DNA of 64,000 nucleotides, taken from IMG/VR virus record IMGVR_UViG_3300031993_000007. The stretch is one strand, 5' to 3'. Under the pieces are notes generated by a model, which was given only the letters and a program-made list of their open reading frames with translations, was not told the DNA's origin and made no database searches. Every line of letters begins with the position of its first letter. Position 1 is the stretch's first letter. This stretch comes from a virus (taxonomy: Duplodnaviria; Caudoviricetes). Both the position numbers and the translations under genes were made by a program. Positions 2,303 to 43,659 of the stretch are shown here, in pieces.

Positions 2303-3730
2303 TTAGGATCCGATAATCTCCTTGGAGATATCGGAAACGCACTTCAGTGTATCATGTTCTAATGTATCTTCGGCGAAGTCTTCTCCAGTATTTTCAGTGT
2401 AGTTTGTAGGGTCAACCATAATATCATTCACAAGACTGTTAGCTACAAAGGTAAAAGCATCATTTTCGCATTCTACATCTTCAGTGAACTTCTCAAGCAA
2501 TTCTCTAGTCTTGTCAATACATTCCAAGAACGGAACCAAGGCTTTCTTGAGCTCGATAAGGTCTGTAATGCAGTCCATAGAGATTCTGGTTCTAGTAGTC
2601 TTCATCATTTCTGTTCTATCGGTAAACCCGACTTCGACATACAATTCTTGATTTCCACCATAGCCAGGACTACCGAACTTAGCATAGCCTTTACCACCTT
2701 CAGGCATCCTATAATGAAAGTCGAAATTCTTATCTGTCTTTTCCATACAGAAATTCTTAACACAGTCCATTATTGCCGGAAGGCAAGTGTTAGAGCCATC
2801 AACAATACGCTTAGTTAGCTTGCTCTTATCATCCTTAGGATAATCTGGAATCTGAGCTTGCATATATCCCTTGAGCAGAATCTTTAAGACAGTCTGTCTT
2901 GCGAAATTAGGATTGGCCTCGTATTCCTCCCTGCTGAACAAGATATAGCCGTTATTCAAATACTTGAATACTTTGAACTCGCTTCGATGGAAAATCAGAG
3001 CATACATCCAAGACAGCATGTTATAACTTGTAACTTTAAATGGAGGAATGAAATAAGCAAAACCATCATTCTTCTTGAGTTCTTCGCGGATCTTTTCAGC
3101 ATCCATAATCTTCGGGGAGACAACCGCTCGAATCTTAGCTTTAAAAGTTAGATGAACTCCAACACTTCCGAAGTTCGGATATCCCGATACAGTGCTAGGA
3201 ATAAGCCCAGAGTGATTCTCTCTGACAAGCTCGTATGCTGTAACTTTGGTTGCGACCTTATCTCCGAATAAGGGAATATTAAAGGAGAACGGAAACCTAA
3301 AAACATTCTTGAAGAGTTCACCTAAGTTATTGACAAGTAAAGTAAGCAAAGAATCAGGATGACTGGGCAAGTAAAAATCTGGAAGGAAAATGTCCAGATT
3401 AATATCAAGACCATCAGTAAAGACCTTCATAGCTTCAGGAGGATAATTCAAACCGTCATTCTCGACGGGGGCATTACCGAGAAAGACATTCTTGAAAAAT
3501 CCGTCTAAATAGAAGAAACTGTTTTGCTTTTCATCTAGAAGTGCAATCATTCCATTCTTAAAATCTTCGACGATATTAGAGGATGGAACAAACTTATTCA
3601 GGTCTTCAGCCGTTTCAATTTTTGTGTTTTCAAAGAAATTGATTACCTCTTGTTTGACAGAAGCATACTTAGTAGGAGTAAGAGTTTTGTCAGCAAGATT
3701 AACAATGGTGGTATACAATGCAGGGATCAT
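2303..3730 (-). CDS. Hypothetical early protein with the shared C-terminal DP module
   Basis: Start moved to ATG 3730 (AAAGGA RBS, TATATTAT at 3763-3770); ends IMVDPTNY...ISKEIIGS. Confidence 0.75.
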   Translation of the reverse strand: MIPALYTTIVNLADKTLTPTKYASVKQEVINFFENTKIETAEDLNKFVPSSNIVEDFKNGMIALLDEKQNSFFYLDGFFKNVFLGNAPVENDGLNYPPEAMKVFTDGLDINLDIFLPDFYLPSHPDSLLTLLVNNLGELFKNVFRFPFSFNIPLFGDKVATKVTAYELVRENHSGLIPSTVSGYPNFGSVGVHLTFKAKIRAVVSPKIMDAEKIREELKKNDGFAYFIPPFKVTSYNMLSWMYALIFHRSEFKVFKYLNNGYILFSREEYEANPNFARQTVLKILLKGYMQAQIPDYPKDDKSKLTKRIVDGSNTCLPAIMDCVKNFCMEKTDKNFDFHYRMPEGGKGYAKFGSPGYGGNQELYVEVGFTDRTEMMKTTRTRISMDCITDLIELKKALVPFLECIDKTRELLEKFTEDVECENDAFTFVANSLVNDIMVDPTNYTENTGEDFAEDTLEHDTLKCVSDISKEIIGS

Positions 3731-3797
3731 AGAAATTCCTTTTAGATTGTGATCATCAAAAAATAATATAGGACAGACTTTCATCTGTCCTATAAAT

Positions 3798-5024
3798 TTA
3801 CTCAATCTTTTTCAAGAAGTCATCGAGGTTCAAACTCTTAGACTTGATCTTGGATTCGTGGAAGTTCTTCAAGCTGGCATTGAGCAAGCCAGATCCGATT
3901 TTCATTAGCATAAAGCCAATTCGAGGAGTGTCCGACGGTATCATCCGGTAGTACATCTCTCCGATACACTTGTTGCAAATATGCTTTCCGGTGCAGAACA
4001 TCGGGCTACGAATCTTTACCACCTTTCCAGCTAGAGCTTTGATGTTTTCTTCGGTAAGGAGATATTCCTTTCCAGCAAACTCAGCATAGCGAAGATGGTA
4101 TTTGTCCTTTGCGTCTGGGCCGATCTTTACCATCAGTCCGTATTTAGTCTTGCAATCTGTGCCATGTTTGTCAAGACGCAGATGTTGGAAGGCCATGTTG
4201 AACTTCTTCACCACGTAGCCGCCCATAGCGGTATCGATACCACGAGAACAAGCCGATCCAATACCATTGTCTGCGTAGATAGCAATTTCAGACTTCTTGA
4301 TACCTTCCTGAAGAGAAGAATCGGCAAATCTAAATTTAGTGTTGTCCTTACTTTCATTCACCAAGCCACGCATGGCCGAGGTAACGCCGACCACATCTTT
4401 AGCAGATCCGCTAGCCATGTAGTCATAAGCAGGCTTGTCTTTGATTTCATCGACAAACTTGGACTTCACTTCGTCATCGATCTTATTAAGAACGGCAACA
4501 TCAACATTCTTTACGGCTTCGGCATTCTCCTGAAGCAGTCTCTTCTTCAAGGCATTCACAGAGGGAATTTCCTTGTAGATATCGTTGCTAAGGCCAGGAG
4601 ATACAAAGCTGGTAATTCCATAAGTAAACCACGTTTCACGATCAATAAAGTCTGTGTAGTCCAGCGAAGAAATCTTTTCTTCAAGCAGGGCAGACGACAG
4701 AACGCTATTGATCTTGCCGATAGTTTTCTTCGTCCAAGGCTCATTGATAAATGAGAAGAGCGAAGTATACTTAGCATTTCCAAGAAGAAACAGATTTGCT
4801 ACGTAACGACCGGCAGTGGTGAGGATGCTTCCAGTTACCTTCGGAATTACAGAAGCCGTTTCGTCTGAAGACCTAAGAGTAAATTCACCGTTGAACGGAA
4901 TCTTTTGCTTTCCTTCGACAAAGGCGAAATTGGCAAGGAGCCATTCCTTAGTGACTTCAGAGTGCTTCAAAGCTAGCAAAGTCCTGATGTTGTCTTCTGT
5001 GAGTTGAGGTCTTTGATTAGCCAT
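3798..5024 (-). CDS. RNA polymerase beta'-like subunit, C-terminal part (probably virion RNAP)
   Basis: TTAGR, MRGLV, SSLQEG, RGIDTAMGGY (bridge helix), DCKT, IRSPMFC..ICNKCIG zinc site, LKNFH (trigger loop); last gene of a late structural operon. Confidence 0.88.
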   Translation of the reverse strand: MANQRPQLTEDNIRTLLALKHSEVTKEWLLANFAFVEGKQKIPFNGEFTLRSSDETASVIPKVTGSILTTAGRYVANLFLLGNAKYTSLFSFINEPWTKKTIGKINSVLSSALLEEKISSLDYTDFIDRETWFTYGITSFVSPGLSNDIYKEIPSVNALKKRLLQENAEAVKNVDVAVLNKIDDEVKSKFVDEIKDKPAYDYMASGSAKDVVGVTSAMRGLVNESKDNTKFRFADSSLQEGIKKSEIAIYADNGIGSACSRGIDTAMGGYVVKKFNMAFQHLRLDKHGTDCKTKYGLMVKIGPDAKDKYHLRYAEFAGKEYLLTEENIKALAGKVVKIRSPMFCTGKHICNKCIGEMYYRMIPSDTPRIGFMLMKIGSGLLNASLKNFHESKIKSKSLNLDDFLKKIE

Positions 5025-5033
5025 AACCTCTCC

Positions 5034-5642: not shown

Positions 5643-5649
5643 GATTTAC

Positions 5650-9784: not shown

Positions 9785-9791
9785 TATATTA
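9785..9791 (+). promoter_or_regulatory. Early-type promoter TATATTA
   Basis: Precedes the 9816-12744 operon. Confidence 0.6.
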
Positions 9792-9815: not shown

Positions 9816-10190
9816 ATGAAAATAGAAATCAGCGAATACGATAATGGCCTTAAGGCTATTGTTATTGACGGCATCACTGTTACTGAAGAACTTGGAACAT
9901 TCTTTAACCTAGCTCCGGGCTATGACAAATCTGTTCCGGCTGGATGGGCGATTTTGGATCCGGAAGTAAGCCAACTGTCTTTCAAGGATGACGAAGTATT
10001 CTTTACAGGAATCTCTCTGAAGCATATCATGTCTAATCCCAATAGCAGAGCTGTATTGCTAGTTAGCTGCGGCCCCAGAGACCGTGATACCAATACGAAC
10101 ATAGCCAGAGTTGTTAAGGTCATCACCGATAAGAAAGGCAAGCTAGAATTCAATCCGGAAACTGGAGAGCTTTCTGATGCTAAATATTAA
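9816..10190 (+). CDS. Hypothetical protein
   Basis: AAGGAG RBS, first gene of an operon. Confidence 0.75.
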   Translation: MKIEISEYDNGLKAIVIDGITVTEELGTFFNLAPGYDKSVPAGWAILDPEVSQLSFKDDEVFFTGISLKHIMSNPNSRAVLLVSCGPRDRDTNTNIARVVKVITDKKGKLEFNPETGELSDAKY

Positions 10191-10848
10191 AAAGGAAATG
10201 GGCGTTCTTATCGAAGCTTGTGGTAATGATAACATTCTAGAGAATTGCCCATTCCAAAGAGAATCCAAAGAAGCGATGATAGACAAAGAGATGGATATCA
10301 TCCGAAGCAATCCATACGCTGCTGGACGATGGCTAGAAGCGTGCCGTGAGTCTCCGGAAGCTACAAAGATTCTCAAGAAGTATCTCAAGGCCGCTGGAGT
10401 TACCGAACATGGCATCTGGATTATAAAGAACTACAACGATCATAGCAAGACTTTGTCTAGTGCAGTATTTGCTTTCTCGGATCTGCTGATAAACACCTTT
10501 AAGACCTATCGAGCTCTCGGAGTTGATCAGAAAGAGTTAACTGACGACGAAAGGTTCGATGCTCTTGACGACTTTAACGTATTCGCACCAGATGCAGAAA
10601 CTTGTGATCGAATTCTGAAGAATCTTAGCGAATATATCAAGGATATGGTTGAGGATTATCTAGATGGAAGCGATAAAAGCATCAGCGACACTGGAGATCT
10701 TGGAGTTCTGGCATTAGCCATCGATGTGGCCAATGATCCTTTAGAATGGCTGAATATCGCAGCTCTATATGATTCTAATAAATTCGGAGAGAACACTGCC
10801 CCGATTTTGGAACTCAACGAAGTCATTGGAGGATTTCTAAATGGCTAG
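10177..10848 (+). CDS. Hypothetical early protein with the C-terminal DP module
   Basis: GGAG RBS; VANDPLEWLNI...VIGGFLNG. Confidence 0.75.
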   Translation: MLNIKKEMGVLIEACGNDNILENCPFQRESKEAMIDKEMDIIRSNPYAAGRWLEACRESPEATKILKKYLKAAGVTEHGIWIIKNYNDHSKTLSSAVFAFSDLLINTFKTYRALGVDQKELTDDERFDALDDFNVFAPDAETCDRILKNLSEYIKDMVEDYLDGSDKSISDTGDLGVLALAIDVANDPLEWLNIAALYDSNKFGENTAPILELNEVIGGFLNG

Positions 10849-11509
10849 ACTGAAAAAGACTTGGATAGAAAAGAATGCGGAATATCTCAAGAATAACATT
10901 ATCAAATGCTTCTTAAGGATTCCGGAAGTCCTTTCCAAAGAATCTTTGAATAATTTTCTGGACACTCAATTTGGACTGATGTGCAAAGATCTGTTTTCAG
11001 CTTTAAGGTTCTTATCACCGTTTATGGTAGATTATCGTGATGATAACGACAATTACGAATTTAAGCTTAGTAACTTTGAAGAAAAGCTCTTAAAACGATT
11101 TCTGATCGAACAGCACCATCTGACTAAAGCAGAATCTAAAATAGCTGTAGATAGATCTTCGGGTATGGTCAATATTCGTATTACCATTGTTGATATCATC
11201 GGAGCTCTTCTCTGGGAAGAAGATCTGAAAGATTTTAGGAATAGCTTTAAGATTTTGCTTCCTAAAGAAATAGCTGTGCCATTCTTCAAGGCAGCTCCAA
11301 AGAGCGAGTATCTGGATTTCTACCTAGAAGAAGCTACTCTAGCTTCGTATATACTAGTAAAGGAATTTCCTCTTAATCCGATCGAGTGGCTATCATTCTT
11401 TGAATCTGCTAAGAGCACAATTCTTAGATCTATAAGTATGGATGAAAGCTCTTTTAATGATCTTACCAACTTGATCAAATCCTGTTTTACAACCAAGGAG
11501 AAAAAGTAA
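10841..11509 (+). CDS. Hypothetical early protein with the C-terminal NP module
   Basis: GGAGG RBS; FPLNPIEWLSF...LIKSCF. Confidence 0.75.
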   Translation: MARLKKTWIEKNAEYLKNNIIKCFLRIPEVLSKESLNNFLDTQFGLMCKDLFSALRFLSPFMVDYRDDNDNYEFKLSNFEEKLLKRFLIEQHHLTKAESKIAVDRSSGMVNIRITIVDIIGALLWEEDLKDFRNSFKILLPKEIAVPFFKAAPKSEYLDFYLEEATLASYILVKEFPLNPIEWLSFFESAKSTILRSISMDESSFNDLTNLIKSCFTTKEKK

Positions 11510-12072
11510 TGAGCGAAGAATTAACAAACATTAATGACATTATTAGTGAACTGGAGAAGTCCGGCACTAAGGTCATTGGAGTTGGCCCAGGCCAAGGATT
11601 GACCATTGGTCTCTTTGGAAGTGAGGCCGAAGAAAGAAGCAGAGCTGATGTTCTTGCAGAACTGAAGCCAAAGGCAGTTAAAGAACTTGCAGAGGCCTTT
11701 AAGGAAATGCTTAACCTTTGGCCTAACACTGTCTTCGAGAATATGGACATCCCGATGGAAATTGTGTTCCAGAATGACTGGGCGCTTGGAGCTATTGGCT
11801 GTCCTAGGCTTCCTGAAGATCGTCGCAAAGACGAAGCTGCTTACACAGCATTCTACAAAGCACTGGCAGAGACCTTTGCGATCTGCCCGACCAACATGGA
11901 AACTGACGAAATGGAAAAGGCTACAGAGTTGCTGATCGACAATATGTTTGATTTGGATCCTACTATTGGTATCAACCTTGGTACTTCTATCGGATTCATC
12001 AATCGTGATAAGCATCCTAGTAAACCGTTCTGTCCGTCACTTATAGAATATGCTAGACGCTATCTGGGGTAA
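11509..12072 (+). CDS. Hypothetical early protein with the C-terminal DP module
   Basis: TAATG coupling, AAGGAG RBS; FDLDPTIGINL...YARRYLG. Confidence 0.75.
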   Translation: MSEELTNINDIISELEKSGTKVIGVGPGQGLTIGLFGSEAEERSRADVLAELKPKAVKELAEAFKEMLNLWPNTVFENMDIPMEIVFQNDWALGAIGCPRLPEDRRKDEAAYTAFYKALAETFAICPTNMETDEMEKATELLIDNMFDLDPTIGINLGTSIGFINRDKHPSKPFCPSLIEYARRYLG

Positions 12073-12074
12073 CT

Positions 12075-12260
12075 ATGATGAACAGTACTATAGCGGCGCT
12101 TGAAGCCGCCTTTCCACTTGAAAAGATCTTGTATTGCAGAGGATGCGGATTACGTCTTAACGATCTTGGTCTAAAAAAGATACCATCTAATTGTCCGGTT
12201 TGCGGAATCTTAACGGAGAATAACCCAAATGATGACAGCACTGCACAAAGCGATGGATAA
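12075..12260 (+). CDS. Small zinc-ribbon protein
   Basis: CRGC...CPVC. Confidence 0.6.
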   Translation: MMNSTIAALEAAFPLEKILYCRGCGLRLNDLGLKKIPSNCPVCGILTENNPNDDSTAQSDG

Positions 12261-12744
12261 GATCATAGATTCTGAAGGCACCACGATTGGAGATTTCTGG
12301 GGATTGCTTACCTTCCTTGAGATTGAGCCGCCCTTGAAACTTCTCAATCAAAAGGGAGAGTACTCAGATCGGTTCAGAAAGGATTTGGAAGACCATTATC
12401 CTATTCAGTTGGATGTGGCCGTCAGATCCAGACTTAGGTGCTATCCCTTGGAAGAGCTTTCGGAATTTATCCGACATCTTCAGATGATTGTAAAGGATGC
12501 AGAACAGATTAAGGATACTTTGGAAAGGGTATATGGAATCCGAGAAGATAATTTCGACACGTACGGATTTGCCTCGGTGATGAAGCCTGTTATCCATCAA
12601 AAATTGGATGACATTCTTGCAGATCCTATAGCCTTCTCTAATAAATTCAGTGAAAAAGATGCACTTTCTCTTGAAAGTTTTAAATTCGGGAAGAGCGTTT
12701 TAAAAGCCATCATAGAAACTAAAAAAGAATTGATCAATGGATAA
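12229..12744 (+). CDS. Hypothetical early protein with the C-terminal DP module
   Basis: GGAG RBS; ILADPIAFSNKF...TKKELING. Confidence 0.75.
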   Translation: MMTALHKAMDKIIDSEGTTIGDFWGLLTFLEIEPPLKLLNQKGEYSDRFRKDLEDHYPIQLDVAVRSRLRCYPLEELSEFIRHLQMIVKDAEQIKDTLERVYGIREDNFDTYGFASVMKPVIHQKLDDILADPIAFSNKFSEKDALSLESFKFGKSVLKAIIETKKELING

Positions 12745-12782: not shown

Positions 12783-13274
12783 TCATAGACTTTTTCTAAA
12801 AAGTCTTTTTTCAGCTTCGATATCTTCTTCAGTCTTGTGGCCATAAATAGATAAGAAAACCTTGTCAAAGCTTTCTTTATTGATCTTCACGGATATAAAG
12901 CCCTGATACACCATTACTAAGCCATAGCCTAGAATTAATACGTTCTCAAGGTACTCAGCCAAGGCGATATCAATGTATCCAATTTTGGCGCACATATACA
13001 TGGTTAGAGCGTTGGCAAGAATTACAAACTTCATGGTCGCATACCCTAGATGGGTACTGAATCCAAATATCGTGTCAGTCCTTTGACTTCTGTTATACAG
13101 AGCTAATACGTACCAAAAGATTGGAATCATCATATACGCCGACGGAGGAGCCTCAAAAAACTTGGCTATCGATCCGCCGACAATTCCAAGGAATGCTCTT
13201 GACGAACTCTTGATGCGATTAGTTCCGTCTGTAAACACTTGCCAAAACATTGTTTCGTAGTTACTCACCTTCAA
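12783..13274 (-). CDS. Integral membrane protein (about 4 TM segments)
   Basis: Several hydrophobic stretches; start uncertain (GTG 13268 possible). Confidence 0.65.
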   Translation of the reverse strand: MKVSNYETMFWQVFTDGTNRIKSSSRAFLGIVGGSIAKFFEAPPSAYMMIPIFWYVLALYNRSQRTDTIFGFSTHLGYATMKFVILANALTMYMCAKIGYIDIALAEYLENVLILGYGLVMVYQGFISVKINKESFDKVFLSIYGHKTEEDIEAEKRLFRKSL

Positions 13275-14445
13275 TCAACTCCTTGCAAATCCAAAAGATT
13301 AATGAATCTTGTCTAAACCACCTGGGAGGTCTGAATTCCATTGTATTGAAGTACTTAATAGGATTAGAGGACAACTCGTCTGCTAATAGCTTTCCAACTA
13401 AAGTAACCGTAGAAGTTCTCTTTCCAATAAGCTTTTCGTCCTTGAAAGACTGGAATTGTTCAGACAATTTATTAGCTAAATTAGACAATTCAGAAAGGTC
13501 ATTGGCGAGTTGCTTAAACCTTTCTGGAGAGTCATTTTGAGCATATCTCCGGGCTTCGATGTTGAAGCTGAACATTCCTCCTCCAATGCTTTTAAGCTTG
13601 TAGAGAAATTGCTCGAACAGCGGATTCGCATTCGCAAGGAGTTCTGCATCAGTGCTGTATCCAGATGGAGCATACCTACACAACCTTGTGGTCATGTCGG
13701 CAAGCTCATTTATGTCTCTAAAATTTGGCTTGTAGATCAGCGTCCCATACCAGTCTATGGTAGAGGGAGCATTACTTCTTTCGTGATACTGGTATATACC
13801 ATCACGAACTTTTCCTTTCTTCTCGCCTTCTTTAAACCATTTAGGGAACTTCTCCTTAATACGATTTGAAATTCGAATGTTCATGAAGTCAACTCCCATA
13901 GAATATAGGATTGCTTCATTAGAACTCGTATAACCGCATTTGGGAATAGGTGTGCCCTTAGATTCATAAAGCTCTATAAATCTGTCTGCCCAAGTCACGA
14001 ATGAAAGGCACGCATAATCCTTAGAATTGTTCCATCCGCCAGCTTCCCTAGTGGAATTAGACCAGAGTCTATAAGATGCGATCGGAACAACCCCTGTATA
14101 ATTCTTGAATTTTGTTTTACCTTCAATAGTAAACGGATTGTATTTTCCTCTTGTAGGCTGATGTTGGTCTTTATACCTTCTGAAGAACTCGTGGAACAGA
14201 AGATGATTTGGAATACAGCCTCTTGCAATATATACAGCATCCGCAATAGCCTTCAGATCGTCTTCAGACTTTCCAACGAGAATATCGTAAAGAAGCATCT
14301 CTTTGTATTCTTCAAGATTTATAGGATGTCTGTTTTCAAATCTTTGTTCGTAGAAAATAGATTGCTTAGTTTCTATCCTTGTTTCGTTGTAAAGAATCGT
14401 CGCAGCCTTCCTTAAGATAGGTCTGCGCAGATGTTTTTCTTTCAT
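13261..14445 (-). CDS. Hypothetical early protein with the C-terminal NP module
   Basis: GAGG RBS; LSSNPIKYFNTM...ICKELIEGE. Confidence 0.75.
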   Translation of the reverse strand: MKEKHLRRPILRKAATILYNETRIETKQSIFYEQRFENRHPINLEEYKEMLLYDILVGKSEDDLKAIADAVYIARGCIPNHLLFHEFFRRYKDQHQPTRGKYNPFTIEGKTKFKNYTGVVPIASYRLWSNSTREAGGWNNSKDYACLSFVTWADRFIELYESKGTPIPKCGYTSSNEAILYSMGVDFMNIRISNRIKEKFPKWFKEGEKKGKVRDGIYQYHERSNAPSTIDWYGTLIYKPNFRDINELADMTTRLCRYAPSGYSTDAELLANANPLFEQFLYKLKSIGGGMFSFNIEARRYAQNDSPERFKQLANDLSELSNLANKLSEQFQSFKDEKLIGKRTSTVTLVGKLLADELSSNPIKYFNTMEFRPPRWFRQDSLIFWICKELIEGE

Positions 14446-14446: not shown

Positions 14447-15982
14447 TTATTCCTCAGGGTTGATAAATGCGCTAGCTATATCGTGTATAGAACGATAGAA
14501 GATGAAGTCTTGTTCTTCTATGTCGTTCATTTGTCCGGCAGTAGGTTTGGCATTATTCAGCCATTCCAAAGCGTTATTGTACATAGTGATCGGATCCAAC
14601 TTGATTTCGTTGAAGAGTACCTTAAAGAATTCCATTATATTCTTTCCGATATCATTGGTCTCTCTGTACATATTTTCAAGAGCACTGTATACCTCTTCCT
14701 TAGACTGAACTTTGTCAAGAAGGGCTTTGCAAGACGCTATCCATTCTTGGGCTTCTGCTCCAAAGACTTGGAATCTTTGGAACGTAGGCCTTCTGGTTTG
14801 GTTCTCCATAGCCTTTTCAATTAAAGACGAAGCATTTATTATCGCAGACATAGCCATTAAAAATACTGGATAAGCCGGAAGCAACCTAGATGAGGCCCAC
14901 GCCAAGAATTCTTTGTTGCTGCGGAAGCTCCCAATCATTTCTGAAGCGCAGAGATAGACAGTATGGTCTATGTTGTAAGCTAAATCAGCTTTCAACTCCC
15001 AGCATCCGTTAACTACAGAAGGACTGGAATTTTCAAACACTACAGAGAGCTTTCGAACCGCAGAAAGATTATCACCTTCTTCAAGTCTGTGTAGTACAAG
15101 TTTCTTAGGCCAGCACAAAGCCGCAAGTACCGCATCAATGACATCGCCTTTGGAGCTCATGTCATAGTAGTCGAATAAGACATTGCTGCCATCCTTTTTG
15201 GCATCCTTGTCAATATTGTCAATTACTGAAGTGATAGTATCGCCGAAGTTTTCTCCATAAATACGAAGATAACGTCCAGCTATATTGTCAGATCTTCGAT
15301 TAACGAACAGATGAATAGGATTTACTAGCGATGACAAATTCTGAACATCTTGCATCAAACAAACGGTGCTGTACGCCCATTCATGCTCGTACGCCATCTG
15401 CCTTCCCATAATAACATAGATATCTTCAAGTTTCCTTGCACCTTCGCTATATGCTTCCTGAAGCAAAGCATTCATTCCTTGTTCAATCGTTTTGTGGAGC
15501 AATGGAAGTTCTTCGTTATAGACTTCCAGAAAAGCTTCACGGAACTTTTCCGGAGTTCCGGCCGATTTAAGCTTATTCCAATGCTTGCTATTGTTTCTGA
15601 TTTCGGCAGATCCAATGAACATGCAAGTTTCAATCCAGGTTTGTCTATAAAGTCTAGCAGATACGCTGTCTTCGCCCAACAACAGACGACGATATAGGCC
15701 GTCACGACGGATCATACCGTTGTTATACTCGTAATACTCCGTTCCCTTAGGGCGCCACTTAAATTGCGGATGGCCAGCCATTGCCTGAACAGCGGCGTCT
15801 GCATGAATAGCGGCATTCTGTTTATTGCATTCATTTTTCAAAGTTTCTCGAAGCTGATCAATTTCTTCTCGATTCCAGATATGGTTAGAAAAATCTATCT
15901 CTCCTTTCTCGATAAGATCAAGCAGAATTTCTGTATTACTCGGCTTTTTGACCTTTAAGTCTTGTATTCTTGGTGTGCTCAT
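14447..15982 (-). CDS. Hypothetical early protein with the C-terminal DP module
   Basis: Start moved to ATG 15982 (GGAG RBS, TATATTAT at 16009-16016); IKLDPITMYNNA...IASAFINPEE. Confidence 0.75.
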   Translation of the reverse strand: MSTPRIQDLKVKKPSNTEILLDLIEKGEIDFSNHIWNREEIDQLRETLKNECNKQNAAIHADAAVQAMAGHPQFKWRPKGTEYYEYNNGMIRRDGLYRRLLLGEDSVSARLYRQTWIETCMFIGSAEIRNNSKHWNKLKSAGTPEKFREAFLEVYNEELPLLHKTIEQGMNALLQEAYSEGARKLEDIYVIMGRQMAYEHEWAYSTVCLMQDVQNLSSLVNPIHLFVNRRSDNIAGRYLRIYGENFGDTITSVIDNIDKDAKKDGSNVLFDYYDMSSKGDVIDAVLAALCWPKKLVLHRLEEGDNLSAVRKLSVVFENSSPSVVNGCWELKADLAYNIDHTVYLCASEMIGSFRSNKEFLAWASSRLLPAYPVFLMAMSAIINASSLIEKAMENQTRRPTFQRFQVFGAEAQEWIASCKALLDKVQSKEEVYSALENMYRETNDIGKNIMEFFKVLFNEIKLDPITMYNNALEWLNNAKPTAGQMNDIEEQDFIFYRSIHDIASAFINPEE

Positions 15983-16012
15983 AATTTCTCCATTAAGGTT
16001 GTCAGGATATAA

Positions 16013-16048
16013 TATAGAACCGTTATCCATCTCTGGATAACGGTTCTA
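16013..16048. terminator. Terminator hairpin after the portal gene
   Basis: TATAGAACCGTTATCCA-tctc-TGGATAACGGTTCTATA; coordinates approximate. Confidence 0.75.
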
Positions 16049-21134: not shown

Positions 21135-21662
21135 TTAAAGGGTTGAGGTTTGTAATGAACTGTTTACGAATTCTAAGAATCCCTTAGCTGTCACTGGACT
21201 GAAATTCGATCTAGGAACTCCTCTCAAATCCAACCGAAGCTTATTAACGGAAGGATCAGACAGAATCAAATTTAAATTGCCGATTACCCGTAAGGGGTCT
21301 GTAGAGGACTTATCAACAAGATTTAATACAAGATTCTGAAGGATATTTTTAGATTTAAGAATATAACGAACTCCATCATCAAATAACAATTTACAAGGAT
21401 ATCTTTCTACAAATTTTTCTATATCATTGATTGCAGGATTATTAAAGATTTTGAAATCAAGTAATTCTTCAAAATCGTGTATCAAGTTATAACAAAAGAC
21501 TGGAGGACAATTAATCAATGAAGATAAAGACTTATCTTCTTCAGGTACTATTACTCTATAATAGTATTTACTCAAAGTCTGATAAAGGCTTATGAATAGT
21601 GTAGCTATGAATTCATAAGCAGTTATGATTTTCATCCATTCCAAAGTACTAAATTTTTCCAT
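21135..21662 (-). CDS. Hypothetical protein with an N-terminal hydrophobic segment and the C-terminal DP module
   Basis: SSTDPLRVIGNL...FLEFVNSSL. Confidence 0.7.
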   Translation of the reverse strand: MEKFSTLEWMKIITAYEFIATLFISLYQTLSKYYYRVIVPEEDKSLSSLINCPPVFCYNLIHDFEELLDFKIFNNPAINDIEKFVERYPCKLLFDDGVRYILKSKNILQNLVLNLVDKSSTDPLRVIGNLNLILSDPSVNKLRLDLRGVPRSNFSPVTAKGFLEFVNSSLQTSTL

Positions 21663-22237
21663 TATGACTCCATTGATTTGGTTATATCCTCTTCTAACAA
21701 TGCTGTGTATGTCTTAGATGATGGGCTATATTTCCAAGTATCATCGTCGTCTTTGATAGATCTAAGATGGGTCAGAAAGGATAGAGGATCGATCATAATT
21801 CTTTCTTCAACATCCAGGATCCATTTCTGCCAAACCATTATGAACCCGGAGTACTGCCTAAAAATCTTCTTAGACTCTTCTTCTAGTGAAGAATCATCAG
21901 CATTGATAGCACAATTGCAAAGCTTCTTGAATTCAGGCCAAGTTGTCTTCTCAGAAAACCCAACAAAGGCTTTTGCTATCTTTCCAGATACGGTGAATCC
22001 GACCAGATTTTCTGCACGGCTTATCCAGTTTTTTGTGGATTCTTCCATTTTGATATAAGTAAAGGTAGCATACATCGACTTAATCTGAAAGATATCTCTG
22101 CAAATACTTCTGATCAACAAAAAGATTTGAGTCCTTCTTGTCTCTCTAATTTCTTCAGGCTTCATATGGGTATAAATCACCTCGCTCACAGCTCGTATAT
22201 AATCAGCACGACTCCGTTCACTCAGATTTTTTAGCAT
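21662..22237 (-). CDS. Hypothetical early protein with the C-terminal DP module
   Basis: Start moved to ATG 22237 (GGAG RBS); IMIDPLSFLTHL...LLEEDITKSM. Confidence 0.72.
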   Translation of the reverse strand: MLKNLSERSRADYIRAVSEVIYTHMKPEEIRETRRTQIFLLIRSICRDIFQIKSMYATFTYIKMEESTKNWISRAENLVGFTVSGKIAKAFVGFSEKTTWPEFKKLCNCAINADDSSLEEESKKIFRQYSGFIMVWQKWILDVEERIMIDPLSFLTHLRSIKDDDDTWKYSPSSKTYTALLEEDITKSMES

Positions 22238-22844
22238 CTTTGGCTCCATTGATGGCATTCCTGGCAAGATCCATGAAGAACTTAATTCCATAGCTTCGGT
22301 CATCAGCTTTGACAAGAATATTGTCCAGCGCTTCAAGATCTGTAAGCATCTTGAAAGGATCGACCTTAAGATTAAAAGCGAAATTTTCTGCCCAAGCTTT
22401 CCATATCGGAAGAGCATCACTAAAGAAATTGTTGTCTATCATAATTTTCGCTTTCTCGTAACTTCCGGCATCATTGCACAGTATAGCGGCTAGCTTCAAA
22501 GTTCCAAAGTAATACCTTACAGACAAACGTGTCTTTTCATTTTTCCAGTCTTCCTTAGTGACATTACACACAATGTATGCAAGCTGTTCTGTAATAGCTT
22601 GGCGTTCCTTCAGCCTTTTGTACACGTCGCTACCATTCTTAACTCTAGGAGTAGGAGGTTCCCACGTAATATCCCAAGACGATTGGCCATACTTTCTTGC
22701 TAAAATCATCAAAGTGTAAAGAAACCTTTGTTCTCTCAACTGAGTATCTAAGGGAAACAATTCATGAACAATTGCGTTTTCAGGCAGTTCTGCGATTCTC
22801 TTCTTAGGTATGCCTAGTTCTTCCGGATTGTTTTCGTTAAACAT
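22218..22844 (-). CDS. Hypothetical early protein with the C-terminal DP module
   Basis: AAGGAG RBS, TATATTA at 22870-22876; LKVDPFKMLTDL...LARNAING. Confidence 0.75.
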   Translation of the reverse strand: MFNENNPEELGIPKKRIAELPENAIVHELFPLDTQLREQRFLYTLMILARKYGQSSWDITWEPPTPRVKNGSDVYKRLKERQAITEQLAYIVCNVTKEDWKNEKTRLSVRYYFGTLKLAAILCNDAGSYEKAKIMIDNNFFSDALPIWKAWAENFAFNLKVDPFKMLTDLEALDNILVKADDRSYGIKFFMDLARNAINGAKDAKKSE

Positions 22845-22922
22845 AATTCTCCTTGGTTGTTGCCCTATTTAATATACAATAAAAAAGAAGCCGCCTCTTT
22901 CGAGACGACTCCTTGCTTGATG

Positions 22923-23831: not shown

Positions 23832-24131
23832 TTAGGGGTTGATATCTTTCCAAGGCTTGAGTCTCCACTCTAGGAGCTTAGAGGCCGAGACGCTTCTGTG
23901 CAGAATATAGAACAAGCGGATCGCTAAAGACAGACAAAGGATTACAGCCGCTATTTGAGTGATCCATTTTAGAGAGTCCTCTATTCTGTCAGTTACGAAT
24001 GCGGCTATTGTAGCTACAAAGTCTATTGCAAATACAAGTGCAGGGCTTTTGTTGAAGCCCTGCTCTGCTACTTTGATTAAGTCCTTGTTGCTGTAACCTT
24101 TGAATTTCTTTTCAAGTTTACAGGTTTCCAT
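23832..24131 (-). CDS. Small two-TM membrane protein
   Basis: Start moved to ATG 24131 (AAGGAG RBS); two hydrophobic segments. Confidence 0.6.
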   Translation of the reverse strand: METCKLEKKFKGYSNKDLIKVAEQGFNKSPALVFAIDFVATIAAFVTDRIEDSLKWITQIAAVILCLSLAIRLFYILHRSVSASKLLEWRLKPWKDINP

Positions 24132-24795
24132 TTGTTGATGGCTCCTTTGGACTTGATCCAGAGTATAAGAATTTGATCCACGCCGTAAAGGCCGGAATTT
24201 CTCCGTCGTCCAATTCGTTGTCATTGAAATCGGCGATTTTGATTTGCTTCTTTAGCTCATCAAGGAGATTTTCCGCTTCCATCGGATCGTGTTTCTGAAG
24301 AGCTTCTTTGCAGATATTTACAAGATTCTCGTAGTCAATTTCTTCTATTAATGTAGATTGGAAGCCGTTAAGACTTGCATTATAGGCTTCGACTGGAGTG
24401 ATCTTTATCTGCTCGTCAAACAGATTCTTTCCGAAGAACGGAGTAATTATTTGGTCATTGAAAATTTTTCCTTCCTTAAATTCTCCTTCTGGATCTATGA
24501 CTATATCCACTGTAGGTTTATTTAGAGGCGAATCTTTAGGGATTTCTTCTTCGTACCCATAGACCTCGTCACAGCAGTCTTCTTTAGCACCAGCTTTTAC
24601 TGCTACAAAGATCATTTCAAGAAGTTCCTTAGCTGCATTGCTAAGGATTTCCTCTTTAGAATTTAGACTACCTGACCTTGGATCTGAGCCATCTCCACCC
24701 ATCTCAACCTTGTTTCCTTTCAAATGGTAATTACCATAGGTCAGAAGTTCAAAGATGGTGTGGCCCGGATTAGTAACATATACCTTCTCTTTCAT
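24118..24795 (-). CDS. Hypothetical early protein, probable C-terminal DP module
   Basis: TATATTAC at 24819-24826, GAGG RBS; QKHDPMEAENLL...FTAWIKFLY. Confidence 0.72.
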   Translation of the reverse strand: MKEKVYVTNPGHTIFELLTYGNYHLKGNKVEMGGDGSDPRSGSLNSKEEILSNAAKELLEMIFVAVKAGAKEDCCDEVYGYEEEIPKDSPLNKPTVDIVIDPEGEFKEGKIFNDQIITPFFGKNLFDEQIKITPVEAYNASLNGFQSTLIEEIDYENLVNICKEALQKHDPMEAENLLDELKKQIKIADFNDNELDDGEIPAFTAWIKFLYSGSSPKEPSTNGNL

Positions 24796-24848
24796 TTTTA
24801 CCTCTGTTGAGTCTTATAGTAATATAAGCCGGAAGCCGAAGCTTCCGG

Positions 24849-25114: not shown

Positions 25115-25423
25115 CTATCCTCCCTTGAACAAGCGTTCTACATCCTTGCAACATTCGGGATAGTCCCGATGGCCGAGTTTCTTCATTTCATCGGCTAAAT
25201 CCCTCATAGCCAGTAAGAATTCTTTGCCGTATTTCTTTCGGCACTTGACGAAGATAAGTCTGTATCCATTGATTTGGCTCTTGAACTCCCTTCCAAACTT
25301 TACAGGAATTCCGTGATGCGCAAAGATAGGTTCAGACAGATAATCATCAATGTCTATGATCGCAAAGTGGTAGAAAATGAATGCCCCTTTGTTGATCCTG
25401 AAATAGTTACGCTGTCTTTTCAT
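25115..25423 (-). CDS. Hypothetical protein
   Basis: GGAGG RBS before ATG 25423. Confidence 0.7.
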   Translation of the reverse strand: MKRQRNYFRINKGAFIFYHFAIIDIDDYLSEPIFAHHGIPVKFGREFKSQINGYRLIFVKCRKKYGKEFLLAMRDLADEMKKLGHRDYPECCKDVERLFKGG

Positions 25424-25877
25424 GTGATTCCTCCGGGTCAATTTTGATCTTGATACTGCCGTCAGAGATCCCAACAAGGATTCTTCCGACAGGCCCATGA
25501 GAATGTTTCTTCATATTGAACCAAGGATATTCTGTTTTATCTGCAATCTCTATAAATTCTATAGGATTACAAATTATGTCGTTATAAAGCTTTCTGATAA
25601 TTGTATCGGAATAGCATGTATTTAAGTTTTCACGAATGGCAATCAGCGGCATTGCTTCGAGATACTTAAAGATATAATCTTGGGTACTGTAGTCCTCCGG
25701 ATGTTTATCCATTGTGCTAATCCACTTCAAAGCGTCTCTAACAAGCCCACTTGCAAAATCCCAAAGTTTTTCGGATGGAGTTAGCTGCTTCATACTCCAA
25801 TTGGTATATTTAGCCTTGAAGATATTTGGGTATGTATCTTTGAATCTTTGCTTTTGTTTATTAAGTCTTTTAGGCAT
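25407..25877 (-). CDS. Hypothetical early protein with the C-terminal NP module
   Basis: GAGG RBS before ATG 25877, TATATTA at 25900-25906; IICNPIEFIEIA. Confidence 0.72.
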   Translation of the reverse strand: MPKRLNKQKQRFKDTYPNIFKAKYTNWSMKQLTPSEKLWDFASGLVRDALKWISTMDKHPEDYSTQDYIFKYLEAMPLIAIRENLNTCYSDTIIRKLYNDIICNPIEFIEIADKTEYPWFNMKKHSHGPVGRILVGISDGSIKIKIDPEESHEKTA

Positions 25878-25937
25878 TTGTTCCTCACAGTTCTCATTAT
25901 AATATACAATAAAAAAAGGTGCTGGGCGCACCTGAAA

Positions 25938-39973: not shown

Positions 39974-39990
39974 AGATCTTCCTTTGTTAA

Positions 39991-40911
39991 TTAGGAGTTG
40001 AGAAGCGCCCGTTTGACATCAGAGATTGCAGATTGATCTGGCGCATCTAGCGCAAGAATTTCGCTTAGCATTACAGCATTGCTCTTAAGCGAAGTAATCA
40101 GCTTATTGTGATAGTCAATCTTTATATTTACAATATTCTCAGGAAATACGGAACCGTAGCTTTCGTACATAATTTCGAGAGTCACAACAAACTCAAATAA
40201 CATTTTGCGTTTGTCTGGGCTATCTATGTAATGAAACATGCTGTTGATCATTTCTGGATGGTACAAGTACACCTCTCCAGACTTTGTCTTCAAGAGTTTT
40301 TCGTCAAAGACCTCATTAAAGAATTTGATAATGAAGTCCTTGTAGTTCTTCGCCTTCCAGTTGCCGCTAAGCTTCTTGGTGATGCAAACCAGAATACTAT
40401 CTTTGGCTGTCGTATAACCCTTGATTCCAAGGAGTTTGCACAACAACATTAGAGCCATAAGGATCTGCACATTTTGATTATTATACTTTGAAGATTCAGC
40501 TTTTGGATCTCCGAAGAATCTCGATATGACACTAAAGAAAATGTTTGTGACCGATCCAGCTCCGTCTGGGGTAATGGCGTATGGTTTGAAGTGGTCATCC
40601 AGCTCTAAGCCAATCGGCAGACCTTTGAAATTAAAATTACTTCCGTCTGGCTTGAATATGTCTCTCATAAATTCATCATTAGGACAAGACAGATCCACCT
40701 TGTTAAGAACTACAGAAGTGAAATCGCACTCGTTCAAGGGAATTGCTACAAATCCCCTGATAGACTTGTGCATCTGATCCATTCCAAGAGAGAATATTGA
40801 CACACTCTTCAGAACTCGATCTATAGGCAAGATATTAAACTCAGGTTCATTTCCATCTAGGCTTAGCTTGAGCAGCCTAAATGCTGTTCGATAGTGCGTA
40901 AAGATTTCCAT
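39991..40911 (-). CDS. Hypothetical protein with a degenerate C-terminal module
   Basis: Ends LITSLKSNAVMLSEIL...VKRALLNS. Confidence 0.7.
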   Translation of the reverse strand: MEIFTHYRTAFRLLKLSLDGNEPEFNILPIDRVLKSVSIFSLGMDQMHKSIRGFVAIPLNECDFTSVVLNKVDLSCPNDEFMRDIFKPDGSNFNFKGLPIGLELDDHFKPYAITPDGAGSVTNIFFSVISRFFGDPKAESSKYNNQNVQILMALMLLCKLLGIKGYTTAKDSILVCITKKLSGNWKAKNYKDFIIKFFNEVFDEKLLKTKSGEVYLYHPEMINSMFHYIDSPDKRKMLFEFVVTLEIMYESYGSVFPENIVNIKIDYHNKLITSLKSNAVMLSEILALDAPDQSAISDVKRALLNS

Positions 40912-41207: not shown

Positions 41208-41245
41208 AAAACTCCAATCGGGATACCGAAGTATCCCGAGTTAAA

Positions 41246-41791: not shown

Positions 41792-41869
41792 GATGGTAAG
41801 TCCTTTTGATGATTAAGAAATTGTTGAATTATGATTACAATTCCTTGTTCAATCTATCTAAACTTCCAC

Positions 41870-42076
41870 TTATTCTACAACGACGAAGTTGCCATTTTCC
41901 GGCTGTAACCTTAGTCCACCCCAAGATCCGCTAAGCTGGCACAAGTCATCCACATGATCGCAAACTCCAGTCTTTCCACTGTACTTAGGTTCTCCTTTCA
42001 TTTCGATGATCTTAATGGTCTTACCAAGATATTTGTCCTTGGTACTTTGGATTTCTGCTTCAGTTGGTATTTTCAT
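41870..42076 (-). CDS. DUF4314-like small protein
   Basis: G.TGV..VDD..QL..SW.GL.L.P pattern; GAGG RBS before ATG 42076. Confidence 0.65.
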   Translation of the reverse strand: MKIPTEAEIQSTKDKYLGKTIKIIEMKGEPKYSGKTGVCDHVDDLCQLSGSWGGLRLQPENGNFVVVE

Positions 42077-42153
42077 AGTTTCCTCTTTGGTTAGACACAA
42101 TTTAATATAGCGCATATATTTTAAAAGGAGAATAATACCAATAAGAGGAAAAT

Positions 42154-43659
42154 ATGCCAACAACTATTTCTGATCTATTCGATTTAATCATAAACAACGG
42201 ACTCGGCAACGACGGATGCGACCTTAATCTTTATATCTTCAAATCTAAGGAATTGGCATCGTTTGGTCGCCATCCATGCTATCAATTAAAAGGCAAACTT
42301 ATTCCTAAAGAATTTTCTGACGAATACAAGACTATTATTGTATTCGATAACGACTACAAATATAAACATAAGGACGAACTTCCGTGTTCTATTGACTTTT
42401 TCGGGTATGAAGCCTTCCGAGAGTTCCTGTTTAAGTACAAACCGGAAAATATGCCCATTGAAGAATTTTTAGATCCTATCATCCGGTCTGGATACAAAGA
42501 TATCATTGACTTCGACTATGTAGGACTGACTTATGTGATGGTATCAGATTCAAAGGCCTTCAACGACCCGGATCTGGAAGAGACTATAAAGAAGAAGACC
42601 GAAGAATACTTCCAAAAGGAAAACCCAGATCAAATTCTGCTAGAAATGTTTGGCTATAATAAATTTAAGGATCCAAAGGTTGAGCAAAATCATAGATCTC
42701 ATCACAAGTTTGTTGACCGCTATGCAGAAGTCAGTTTCATAGGCATGACTTATAAGCTCTTCGTGCACAACCAGTATATAGAAGATCCTAGAAGTCTAAT
42801 AAATATCTTTATGTTTGACAAAATGTCAGAAGAGCTTGGTTCTATTAATGATCAGCATGTGGGTCGATTCATCTTGCCGTTTAGAATTAAGCTTCGTCTT
42901 GAAAAAGATATCAAAAGCAGCTGTCCTCCATTCTCTAAGGAATTGGAGGTTGATACCATATACAAAGACGGCGTTCCGATGGACTCCAAAGCTATTCCAA
43001 AGATATACAGACTGAGTATGGACTTCTTGAAGTACCACGATAAACTAGAAGTTACACAACGCCTGAAATCTTATAGGAGGGGTGCTTATGAACAAGCTGA
43101 AAATTTCCTTCAGATTCGTCAGGACTGTAGCCACCTAAATCTGATTGAAAAGAGGATCCGTGAAGCTGTCAAGGGAGATTCAAACCTTACTAACGAGGCA
43201 TGGCTATCTCTGATTATTCGGTGTGCTATGTTCCTCGACAATGGTCTGTCTCTTCACAAAGATGGCATCAATGAATCATTCTTGAGCTCTCCTTCTAAAG
43301 AGCTAGATATCTCTAAAGATAGCGGATTTGGCAAAGATTTCCGCCTACATCTTTTCGGCGCTGGAGATAGCAAAATGCTGCTTTCTCCGAATTCGATTAT
43401 TGAAAAGCTTAGCAGCGATCTTGAAGATCTAAAGACCTGGACAGAAGGGTTTAAAGAAATCGTACATTTCATGAAGACTTGTTTCTCTGAAGAAGAAATG
43501 AATATCGACTTGACTATGGAAGATTTTGTAATCAAAGTCCTTGGTCGAACCGTTCCTACGGATCCGTTGTCAGTAATCAATTCCATCAATAGAGTAGAAA
43601 ACCATGAATTATGCTCTTATCTTAAACCAGCTGCAAAGATTGCTAGAGAGCTACTGTAA
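42154..43659 (+). CDS. Hypothetical early protein with the C-terminal DP module
   Basis: GAGG RBS, TATATT upstream; VPTDPLSVINSI...IARELL. Confidence 0.78.
   Translation: MPTTISDLFDLIINNGLGNDGCDLNLYIFKSKELASFGRHPCYQLKGKLIPKEFSDEYKTIIVFDNDYKYKHKDELPCSIDFFGYEAFREFLFKYKPENMPIEEFLDPIIRSGYKDIIDFDYVGLTYVMVSDSKAFNDPDLEETIKKKTEEYFQKENPDQILLEMFGYNKFKDPKVEQNHRSHHKFVDRYAEVSFIGMTYKLFVHNQYIEDPRSLINIFMFDKMSEELGSINDQHVGRFILPFRIKLRLEKDIKSSCPPFSKELEVDTIYKDGVPMDSKAIPKIYRLSMDFLKYHDKLEVTQRLKSYRRGAYEQAENFLQIRQDCSHLNLIEKRIREAVKGDSNLTNEAWLSLIIRCAMFLDNGLSLHKDGINESFLSSPSKELDISKDSGFGKDFRLHLFGAGDSKMLLSPNSIIEKLSSDLEDLKTWTEGFKEIVHFMKTCFSEEEMNIDLTMEDFVIKVLGRTVPTDPLSVINSINRVENHELCSYLKPAAKIARELL

Follow-up and report, generated by a model that had tools for sequence, protein, structure and literature searches.

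Early-type operons of a large rumen phage encode a divergent paralog family with a common C-terminal helical unit

Large phages can carry many copies of a single small domain. For example, Bacillus phage G has ∼35 zinc-ribbon copies, a lineage-specific jumbo phage expansion (PMC7824862). Another point of reference is AR9, whose early promoter has been defined experimentally as AAATATATATTAT-(6N)-G, with a consensus that includes TATATTAT (PMC5312081). AR9 is among the closest cultured relatives of the phage considered here, an uncultured 259-kb rumen phage; the beta subunit of its RNA polymerase (RNAP) is closest to that of AR9/PBS1 (35% identity), followed by phiR1-37 (31%). The core of the AR9 early promoter is matched by the TATATTA of the rumen phage, and the genes described below may be read from promoters of this type, the ones that the virion RNA polymerase uses in AR9.

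As for the genes themselves, the initial annotation of the window, the 64,000-nt stretch of phage DNA that was analyzed, singled out 13 proteins with a common C-terminal module, in which an amphipathic helix leads to [D/N]-P-hydrophobic and a short helix, and a variable spacer precedes the final amphipathic helix. All 13 of the quoted C-terminal strings are found in the sequence, and the distance from [D/N]-P to the stop codon is 32-56 aa, as stated. The starts listed for four genes (2303, 14447, 21662, and 25407; genes are named here by their lower coordinate) were too long, and the shorter public gene calls are given below. At the BLAST level, similarity among the N-termini of the listed proteins is absent, as claimed; likewise, none of the structural and RNAP proteins scores as a family member, and no further window protein was found by eye to carry the motif.

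Is this pattern beyond chance? A loose regular expression of the motif, scored 25-75 aa from the C-terminus in 311 proteins, matches 28 of them versus 9.2 ± 2.8 in shuffled tails (maximum 17 in 200 shuffles), and it occurs in 3 of 143 N-terminal 80-aa controls. Per 1000 residues, the motif occurs 2.1 times in the segment 20-59 aa from the C-terminus and ∼0.55 times elsewhere; proteins that have it also tend to end in h-h-[QNE]-(G/end) (Fisher p = 6.5e-6). When the window set was compared with a set of proteins from an array outside the window (profile-profile, hhalign), the score was 26.4 (E 8e-5, 59 columns), whereas D-P-anchored control sets (n = 30) reached 10.0 ± 1.7, with a maximum of 15.6. 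By shuffles, N-terminal controls, and profile comparison alike, the shared pattern is real and well above chance.

Perhaps, then, 13 unrelated proteins converged on a common helical ending, made of a helix, a D-P N-cap, a helix, and a terminal amphipathic helix? Hydrophobic-[DN]-P-x-x-hydrophobic is indeed a textbook helix N-cap with a hydrophobic staple; the module profile also gives 49 bits to an unrelated repeat protein of 748 aa that is rich in D-P helix caps, MAFFT aligned modules to an internal N-P site of 14447, and five listed proteins fail the held-out profile tests. However, convergence is quite improbable given the roughly four-fold positional enrichment, the link to the second, terminal motif, the far lower scores of the D-P-anchored control sets, the lack of cross-detection by random-set HMMs, and the tandem clustering of the members in the same early operons.

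Which of the 13 proteins belong together? An HMM trained on 15 proteins of the array, all outside the window, retrieves 14447 as its top non-training match (E 3.4e-5), followed by 25407 (1.2e-3), 21662 (3.4e-3), and 12229 (6e-3); for random-set HMMs the best E had a median of 0.06, and none gave four matches below 0.01. The same HMM places 22218 at rank 8, and this protein matches an outside member, g264, by BLASTP (E 6e-5). On these sequence comparisons, the five proteins are supported as members of an orphan paralog family. The largest, 14447 (14447..15982, minus strand, 511 aa; module 14450-14692), has the family domain at residues 412-509 behind ∼410 unrelated N-terminal residues; its sole outside homolog is a truncated copy, 74% identical, and it has no match in PDB, Pfam, or PHROG. 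The smallest, 25407 (25407..25877, minus strand, 156 aa; module 25410-25664), has its own TATATTA at 25900-25906. The pair 21662 (21662..22237, minus strand, 191 aa; module 21665-21886) and 22218 (22218..22844, minus strand, 208 aa; module 22221-22457) align in register by BLASTP (E 0.008); 22218 is the first gene of its operon, and its tail past A-I-N-G overlaps the start of 21662. The fifth, 12229 (12229..12744, plus strand, 171 aa; module 12526-12741), is the last gene of a plus-strand operon and is followed by a terminator; a variant 87% identical to it retains D-P and K-K-E-L-I.

Four other proteins are probably members, albeit marginal ones, judging mainly from a held-out profile search among ∼290 proteins, in which 2303, 13261, and 21135 rank 5, 9, and 12 (E 0.03-0.5). 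The probable member 2303 (2303..3730, minus strand, 475 aa; module 2306-2509; E 0.027) matches 12229 in register by BLASTP (E 0.029), and its own TATATTA (3764-3770) lies within the 3' end of the RNAP beta gene. Its AlphaFold2 single-sequence model, with helices and strands in the N-terminal part, is of too low confidence to be used (pLDDT 36); no homolog was found among 5.8 billion proteins, and the sister contig L006 lacks the gene at the syntenic position. Also probable is 13261 (13261..14445, minus strand, 394 aa; module 13264-13461; E 0.13), which ends in K-E-L-I-E-G-E, with the Shine-Dalgarno (SD) sequence of the next gene within its terminal codons. The first marginal protein is 21135 (21135..21662, minus strand, 175 aa; module 21138-21395): a profile of it and its variant P0022 scores 16.6 against the array, barely over the control maximum of 15.6, and the two are 84% identical over the C-terminal 75 aa and ∼65% over the remainder. 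The second, 10177 (10177..10848, plus strand, 223 aa; module 10639-10845), is at rank 14 with the array-only HMM (E 0.25); the codons of its terminal G-G-F-L-N-G comprise GGAGGA, an SD, and AATGGC, which contains the ATG of 10841.

The claim of a module common to all 13 proteins thus holds for about nine (five supported and four marginal). For the other four, support stops at the short motif, a generic helix cap, and they are look-alikes. In 10841 (10841..11509, plus strand, 222 aa), N-P-I-E-W-L lies 44 aa from the end, and the region matched at held-out rank 44 is outside the module. The protein 11509 (11509..12072, plus strand, 187 aa; held-out rank 140) has an ortholog in the sister contig (L006 316-1284, 322 aa) that is 37% identical over the last ∼140 aa (E 1e-23), with the D-P block and last helix conserved and 180 unrelated extra N-terminal residues; a profile of these two sequences found no match to the family (hhalign probability 0.4%). 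The remaining two are 24118 (24118..24795, minus strand, 225 aa; held-out rank 17, E 1.7; TATATTA 24820-24826) and 42154 (42154..43659, plus strand, 501 aa; held-out rank 33), which has a weak in-register BLASTP match to 14447 (E 0.024) and TATATTT at 42115-42121, 33 nt upstream of its start. A further protein, 39991 (39991..40911, minus strand, 306 aa), proposed as a degenerate version, has D-Y instead of D-P and is not a member (leave-one-out rank 200, held-out rank 61).

The members in the window are only part of the picture. About 16 additional proteins with the same two-part signature lie outside it, at 215-222, 234, and 245 kb of the genome, and several array members are linked to each other by direct BLASTP. 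Most family members are probably all-helical, are 100-200 aa, and lie in tandem early-type operons just beyond the window. From the sequence evidence, ∼25-30 very divergent genes appear to form an orphan paralog family whose conserved core is the C-terminal unit. The distribution of the family is narrow: an HMM search returned 15 matches from 1.84 billion proteins, with 11 of the 13 sequences retrieved being the phage's own proteins or near-identical variants, and a profile search returned five from 5.8 billion. In these databases, the family has so far been found only in the phage itself and its near-identical variants, plus one or two metagenome proteins related to it. No match of the module to a known family or fold was found, and Pfam and PHROGs lack the family; whole-database searches unrestricted by phage group found no relatives in AR9, PBS1, or phiR1-37.

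The outside array and the window members share the D-P junction, the terminal helix ending in L-[IL]-[QNE]-(G), and the early-type operons. They differ in that the outside proteins have a second Pro at +7 (D-P-x-x-Y-x-P), which window members lack, and in size: 103-198 aa versus 156-511 aa, four window proteins having long unrelated N-terminal regions that the array does not show. The zinc ribbons of phage G are similar as many diverged copies of one small domain in a single jumbo phage lineage; the present family, unlike them, is predicted to be all-helical, lacks metal ligands, and is found in early-type operons, with some copies apparently fused to other sequence.

A structural view of the unit comes from the AlphaFold2 model of 12229, which is all-helical and of moderate confidence (mean pLDDT 65, but 75-86 over most of the C-terminal half). 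Helices span residues 111-131, 133-139, and 142-170, with D132-P133 at the junction of the first two. The last helix reaches the final residue (pLDDT 82-86) as part of a single uninterrupted helical unit at the C-terminus; in the model, it is thus not a free tail. Across members, 0 to ∼14 residues follow the last helix, which argues against recognition of a free C-terminus.

Does this unit serve as a portable adaptor through which proteins with differing N-terminal target-binding domains all reach the same partner, such as a chaperone or protease of the host, a phage machine, or a loading apparatus? A conserved C-terminus with a variable N-terminus does recur in many of these early proteins; the D-P junction and the last helix are among the blocks best conserved between the two distant orthologs, the sole such pair; and in four long members the unit follows ∼300-410 unrelated residues. 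The adaptor is nonetheless unlikely. In small members, the unit is at least half of the sequence and would be the protein itself rather than a tag, the terminal helix belongs to a continuous unit, the tails beyond it differ, and close variants are not consistently more conserved in the module (for 12229, 80% in the module versus 92% elsewhere). Poxvirus ankyrin-repeat/PRANC proteins are at most alike in being a multigene family with variable N-termini and a short conserved C-terminal helical unit; ankyrin repeats are absent here, and no PRANC or F-box match was found in Pfam. To our knowledge, bacteria have no Skp1-like partner.

Accordingly, the initial picture of a conserved C-terminal unit behind variable N-termini stands for about nine of the 13 proteins, but the same unit is also the core of the ∼16 outside proteins. 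By sequence, the members of 156-225 aa seem to be related along their whole length, as highly diverged paralogs within a single family; this is largely the outcome that had been named as speaking against a tag, except that the family is not a known one. We take the 70-90 aa shared at the C-terminus to be an inherited structural core more probably than a docking or sorting tag; the two are compatible, because a conserved core can double as a shared binding surface.

All of the listed genes are, as claimed, behind TATATT: each operon has TATATTA or TATATTT 20-40 nt upstream of its first start codon, and this spacing to an operon start holds for 38 of the 90 genomic copies of TATATT[A/T]. On the plus strand, operon 9816-12744 is headed by TATATTA at 9785..9791, with 24 nt between it and the ATG (9816). 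On the minus strand, TATATTA at 16010..16016, which follows a hairpin and lies 27 nt before the start at 15982, heads the operon of 14447, 13261, and 12783-13274, and TATATTA at 22870..22876, preceded by a terminator hairpin and a T-run and 25 nt upstream of the start, heads that of 22218, 21662, 21135, and genes beyond.

Such tightly coupled operons raise another question: is the terminal similarity mainly a nucleotide signal, with gene ends conserved for the translation-initiation region that they house for their downstream neighbor? Of 30 family genes, 11 end in xxA/G-TGA, overlapping the next start, and eight of these 11 end in h-h-Q/S, with codons TTA/CTA ATY CAA/CAG TGA; GGAG-type SD sequences are found in the codons before. 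In 8 of the 13 window members, the last codons contain the SD or start of the following gene, or the two genes overlap. The similarity at the extreme end (K/E-E/G..L-I-Q/N/E-G) is partly imposed by the SD, AT-rich spacer, and start codon of the next gene. As the main explanation, however, this has a very slim chance: L-I-Q endings are absent from 37 non-family genes that share the ATGA/GTGA overlap (only 3 of the 37 end in Q), the operon-terminal 12229 and 2303, which precede terminators, retain K-E-L/I-I-x-G, and the D-P junction 32-56 aa upstream is left unexplained.

The inherited-core paralog family, taken as a whole with its membership, core, spread, early expression, and host-directed role, is the reading we favor, with slightly better than even confidence. 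The core would begin with a long amphipathic helix; next would come a hydrophobic-[D/N]-P-h-x-h N-cap, a hydrophobic staple, opening a short helix, then a variable loop, and finally a long terminal helix packing back on the first. It may have spread by tandem gene duplication, and the four proteins of 394-511 aa probably gained it when a family gene became fused to the end of an unrelated gene upstream, an easy step where neighboring genes overlap by ATGA or TAATG. The products could be early host-directed binding proteins involved in takeover or anti-defence, in which the conserved helical hairpin would act as the folding nucleus and fast-evolving or accreted N-terminal parts would give target specificity. 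N-terminal plasticity is visible in the sister-contig ortholog of 11509 and in 21135, whose variant differs chiefly in this part.

The C-terminal module of these proteins, a unit of 70-90 residues with a long helix, a hydrophobic-[D/N]-P junction, a short helix, a spacer, and a terminal helix, is most plausibly interpreted as a core inherited within a paralog family specific to this phage. The initial annotation had seen in it a candidate docking or sorting tag, and the motif from which that idea grew is real. Every quoted string of the listed proteins is found in the sequence, and the [D/N]-P pair does lie 32-56 aa from the C-terminus in all 13 of them, as part of a hydrophobic-[D/N]-P-h-x-h junction (h, hydrophobic) whose range in the family extends to about 32-86 aa; protein 39991, listed as a degenerate version, has D-Y in place of D-P. 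The gene starts needed some revision, since four had been over-extended (2303, 14447, 21662, and 25407, with public gene calls of 475, 511, 191, and 156 aa, respectively). Scored over the phage proteome, the motif exceeds chance: a loose regular expression for the junction, placed 25-75 aa from the C-terminus, matches 28 of 311 predicted proteins versus 9.2 ± 2.8 for shuffled tails, and 3 of 143 N-terminal controls. Its density 20-59 aa from the C-terminus is ∼4 times that elsewhere, and it is associated with a terminal h-h-[QNE]-(G/end) (Fisher p = 6.5e-6). This helix end, L/I/F-[IL]-[QNE]-(G) near the stop codon, is clear in 12229, 13261, 10177, 22218, 14447, and 2303, and looser in the others. 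No further window protein with the motif was found by eye, and none of the structural genes and RNA polymerase (RNAP) subunits, which had been said to lack the module, scores as a family member. In pI, charge, and hydropathy, the family members are no different from the remaining proteome.

The motif is also generic. Hydrophobic-[D/N]-P-x-x-hydrophobic is a classical helix N-cap with a hydrophobic staple, and the module profile gives 49 bits on P0004, an unrelated public-database protein of 748 aa that does not come from this phage and has a signal peptide followed by about five repeats rich in D-P-I-E-F-I-K-G-type helix caps. This protein is a useful false-positive control for the D-P motif. 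The same property affected the alignments: MAFFT matched the modules to an N-P site in the interior of 14447, and the resulting alignment was discarded for this reason.

How far, then, does common descent reach? An HMM of the 14 listed C-termini gives many weak matches outside the window, at genome positions 215-222, 234, and 245 kb, all carrying the same junction and ending in L-I-Q, L-I-Q-G, L-F-E-G, and similar. The reverse search used an HMM trained only on 15 of these outside-window proteins (the array of small tandem genes), so that the window proteins never entered the training. Its best non-training matches are, in order, 14447 (E 3.4e-5), another outside-window gene (g293), 25407 (1.2e-3), 21662 (3.4e-3), and 12229 (6e-3), with 22218, 2303, and 10177 at ranks 8, 13, and 14; by comparison, for 25 HMMs trained on randomly drawn C-termini from outside the family, the median of the best E was 0.06, and none had four matches below 0.01. 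A direct link is provided by BLASTP between g264, an outside-window member, and 22218 (E 6e-5). Because the listed proteins had been chosen for having D-P, the controls of the profile-profile comparison were anchored on D-P as well: the window set scores 26.4 over 59 columns with the array set, versus 10.0 ± 1.7 (maximum 15.6) for 30 control sets of D-P segments taken from outside the family. Restricted to the eight weakest window proteins, the comparison gives 16.8, with just 16 columns aligned.

In a held-out test, with the training set enlarged by five window members, the remaining proteins ranked 5, 9, 12, 17, 25, 33, 44, 61, and 140 of ∼290; rank 25 is 10177, whose match lies outside its module. 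Profile similarity to the array is marginal for 2303, 13261, 21135, and 10177, and it was not found for 10841, 11509, 24118, 42154, and 39991 with the held-out HMM or, for 11509, by profile comparison; a profile of 11509 together with its sister-phage ortholog gave no match to the family. On these similarities, our reading is that five proteins are firm members, four are marginal, and five, including 39991, have the short motif only. A conserved C-terminal unit behind variable N-termini, as originally proposed, thus holds for about nine of the 13, and the rest share only the short motif. Of the 16 array members, 11 have a second proline seven residues after D-P, which no window member has; the window proteins form a separate, more diverged branch of the family. 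Five genes, g299 and g300 (genome 250-252 kb), g023, g064, and g232, end in h-h-Q (I-L-L-Q, F-M-Q, I-I-Q, L-I-Q, and M-I-Q) without the D-P junction; g232 is located within the tandem array, and it may represent a member in which the junction was lost. A resemblance of 24118 to gene g096 was dropped: it involves an opposite-strand ORF that is apparently spurious.

The window proteins of 156-225 aa are probably diverged family members over their whole length, and four proteins of 394-511 aa carry the family unit behind about 300-410 residues without detectable relatives in Pfam, PHROGs, and PDB sequence searches. These long members probably arose by gene fusion, an easy step where genes overlap by ATGA. 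As for relatives elsewhere, the profile found 15 matches at E ≤ 1e-3 among 1.84 billion representative proteins; among the 13 match sequences retrieved, 11 are the phage's own proteins or near-identical variants, and one new family member of 125 aa was obtained. A search of 5.8 billion proteins gave five matches. Pfam (E ≤ 0.1) and PHROGs returned nothing meaningful for ten members, and PDB sequence searches with family members gave no match. Homolog searches with 14447 and 2303 yielded nothing beyond the two queries and a single truncated copy (74%), so that the alignments of the long members could not be deepened.

For 12229, structure prediction is in line with the description of the module as helix, D-P, short helix, and terminal helix. 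An AlphaFold2 model of 12229, built on a paralog alignment with a mean pLDDT of 65, is all-helical (helix 111-131, D132-P133, helix 133-139, helix 142-170), with pLDDT values of 75-86 across most of the C-terminal half. Foldseek against the PDB and a wide VIA-align search with this model gave no convincing match (best E 4, best Z 4.6), a result that is uninformative at a pLDDT of 65. The single-sequence model of 2303 (pLDDT 36) is unusable, and the ESM Atlas holds no model of 14447 and gave no usable match for it.

Is this unit, as first suggested, a tag that docks many proteins onto a shared partner? The data speak neither for nor against this idea in general, and a folded docking domain is possible; tags of the tail type, however, fit poorly. 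The tails that follow the helix vary in length, the last codons are dual-coding, and the terminal helix, as modeled in 12229, reaches the final residue at high confidence inside a continuous helical unit, so that it would belong to this unit and not to a free tail. Tags that depend on a free carboxyl end (ssrA-type degrons, HbYX, PDZ ligands, and Ubl G-G ends) were rejected, given that the motif is not at a fixed distance from the C-terminus: 0 to about 14 unrelated residues follow the L-I-x-G position, and many array members lack the G and end in Q.

The last codons carry a nucleotide signal of their own. Eleven of 30 family genes end in xxA/G-TGA, overlapping the next start codon, and in eight of these 11 the last residues are h-h-Q/S, encoded by TTA/CTA ATY CAA/CAG TGA and preceded by codons that contain a GGAG-type Shine-Dalgarno (SD) sequence. 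The end of 10177, GGAGGA...AATGGC, is at once the SD and the ATG of 10841; the SD of the next gene falls within the last codons of 10841, 14447, 21662, and 13261, and both 22218 and 25407 overlap the next gene. The terminal similarity is thus partly imposed by the SD or start of the following gene. However, the L-I-Q ending is not shared by genes outside the family that have this overlap, and operon-terminal members retain K-E-L/I-I-x-G; therefore, the nucleotide signal inflates the terminal similarity and does not create it. A general caution follows: in tightly coupled operons, last codons can mimic a conserved peptide motif by encoding the ribosome-binding site of the next gene.

The window corresponds to positions 149,001-213,000, read on the minus strand, of a virus record that is complete (259,448 bp) and has direct terminal repeats. 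The phage encodes split multisubunit RNAP subunits and phiKZ-type virion proteins, and the nearest matches of its RNAP beta subunit are from the Bacillus phages AR9/PBS1 (35%) and the Yersinia phage phiR1-37 (31%). No GenBank phage was matched in megablast and tblastn searches based on the 10-16 kb cluster and on a protein of 1283 aa, and IMG/VR scans with 14447 and a piece of RNAP beta' found no relatives. Import into a phage nucleus was considered and set aside as a role for the module; AR9, PBS1, and phiR1-37, the nearest relatives in culture, are not known to have the nuclear-shell protein.

All operons with a listed protein were said to stand behind TATATT, and this is the case: each of them has TATATTA or TATATTT 20-40 nt upstream of its first start codon, often directly after a terminator hairpin. 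Genome-wide, 38 of 90 TATATT[A/T] copies have that upstream position. In AR9, the early promoter has been mapped experimentally as AAATATATATTAT-(6N)-G, read by the virion RNAP, in which about 6 nt separate the AT-rich TATATTAT core from the transcription start downstream (PMC5312081), and such AT-rich early motifs are general in jumbo phages with their own RNAPs (PMC7598289). By homology, early expression of the listed operons is thus a good inference. One TATATTA, at window positions 3764-3770 (minus strand), falls within the final codons of the RNAP beta-subunit gene (3798-5024) and precedes the true start of 2303 by 34 nt, apparently an early-type promoter within coding sequence.

The family is an orphan example of a known phenomenon, the lineage-specific expansion of early genes in a jumbo phage. 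Orphan genes take up much of the early coding capacity of such phages; here, roughly one in ten genes derives from one helical unit, which has probably also been fused behind unrelated sequence, so that an early region that is otherwise hard to interpret can be approached through a single scaffold to solve, mutate, or use as bait. Judging from gene position and diversification, its members may be early host-directed binding proteins. A much bolder version, which we consider very improbable, would make the helical unit a true docking domain and the family an adaptor library, in which variable N-termini bind host targets and the C-terminal unit delivers them to a phage machine. The idea arises because the phage carries an E1-E2-Ubl-JAMM conjugation operon (genome 103-108 kb, where a ThiF match at 104.9 kb and an E2 containing an H-P-N motif were confirmed), the most provocative candidate for such a machine. 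If true, it would be the bacterial-virus counterpart of the poxvirus ankyrin/F-box adaptors, and a shared docking surface would show by what route a phage can act on many host proteins via one machine; unlike those adaptors, however, the family has neither the PRANC/F-box signature nor ankyrin repeats (Pfam on ten members; PDB sequence searches). Inside the operon, g106 (genome 108731-109045, plus strand; 104 aa) has a family-like junction, L-E-M-D-P-E-D-F-I, 69 aa from its C-terminus, and no family-type terminal helix.

Protein 2303 (2303-3730, minus strand) gave, over residues 188-339, a weak phmmer match to the N-terminal ubiquitin-binding domain of yeast Ufd1 (E 0.04, colinear over 150 aa). 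Pfam gave nothing on 2303 even at E 10, and a UFD1_N1 search of the phage genome had no match; the reading of 2303 as a Ufd1 N-terminal (UT3) double-psi barrel was dropped, and the similarity is probably due to chance. The match does occur in a phage with its own Ubl operon.

A view of how these genes evolve is offered by an 11 kb metagenome contig, Ga0310696_10009744, from a sister phage, as judged from a virion protein of 918 aa with 54% identity. In its ortholog of 11509, the C-terminal ∼140 aa are retained (37% identity), and the stretches conserved best include the D-P block and the last helix, whereas 180 extra unrelated residues are present at the N-terminus. Close variants of 12229 and 21135 show no consistently slower evolution of the module versus the rest of the protein. 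Between contig positions 4181 and 11083, the gene order of virion protein, two small genes, RNAP beta, and NAD-salvage operon is kept. The slot of 2303, between RNAP beta and pncB, holds three unrelated genes of 235, 125, and 176 aa, none of which was accepted as a 2303 ortholog, and it looks like a hot spot of gene replacement. Finally, an unlisted zinc-ribbon ORF of 61 aa (C-x-x-C ... C-x-x-C), at window positions 12075-12260 (plus strand) between 11509 and 12229 and overlapping the start of the latter, is conserved beside the 11509 ortholog of the sister phage (contig 114-347, minus strand).
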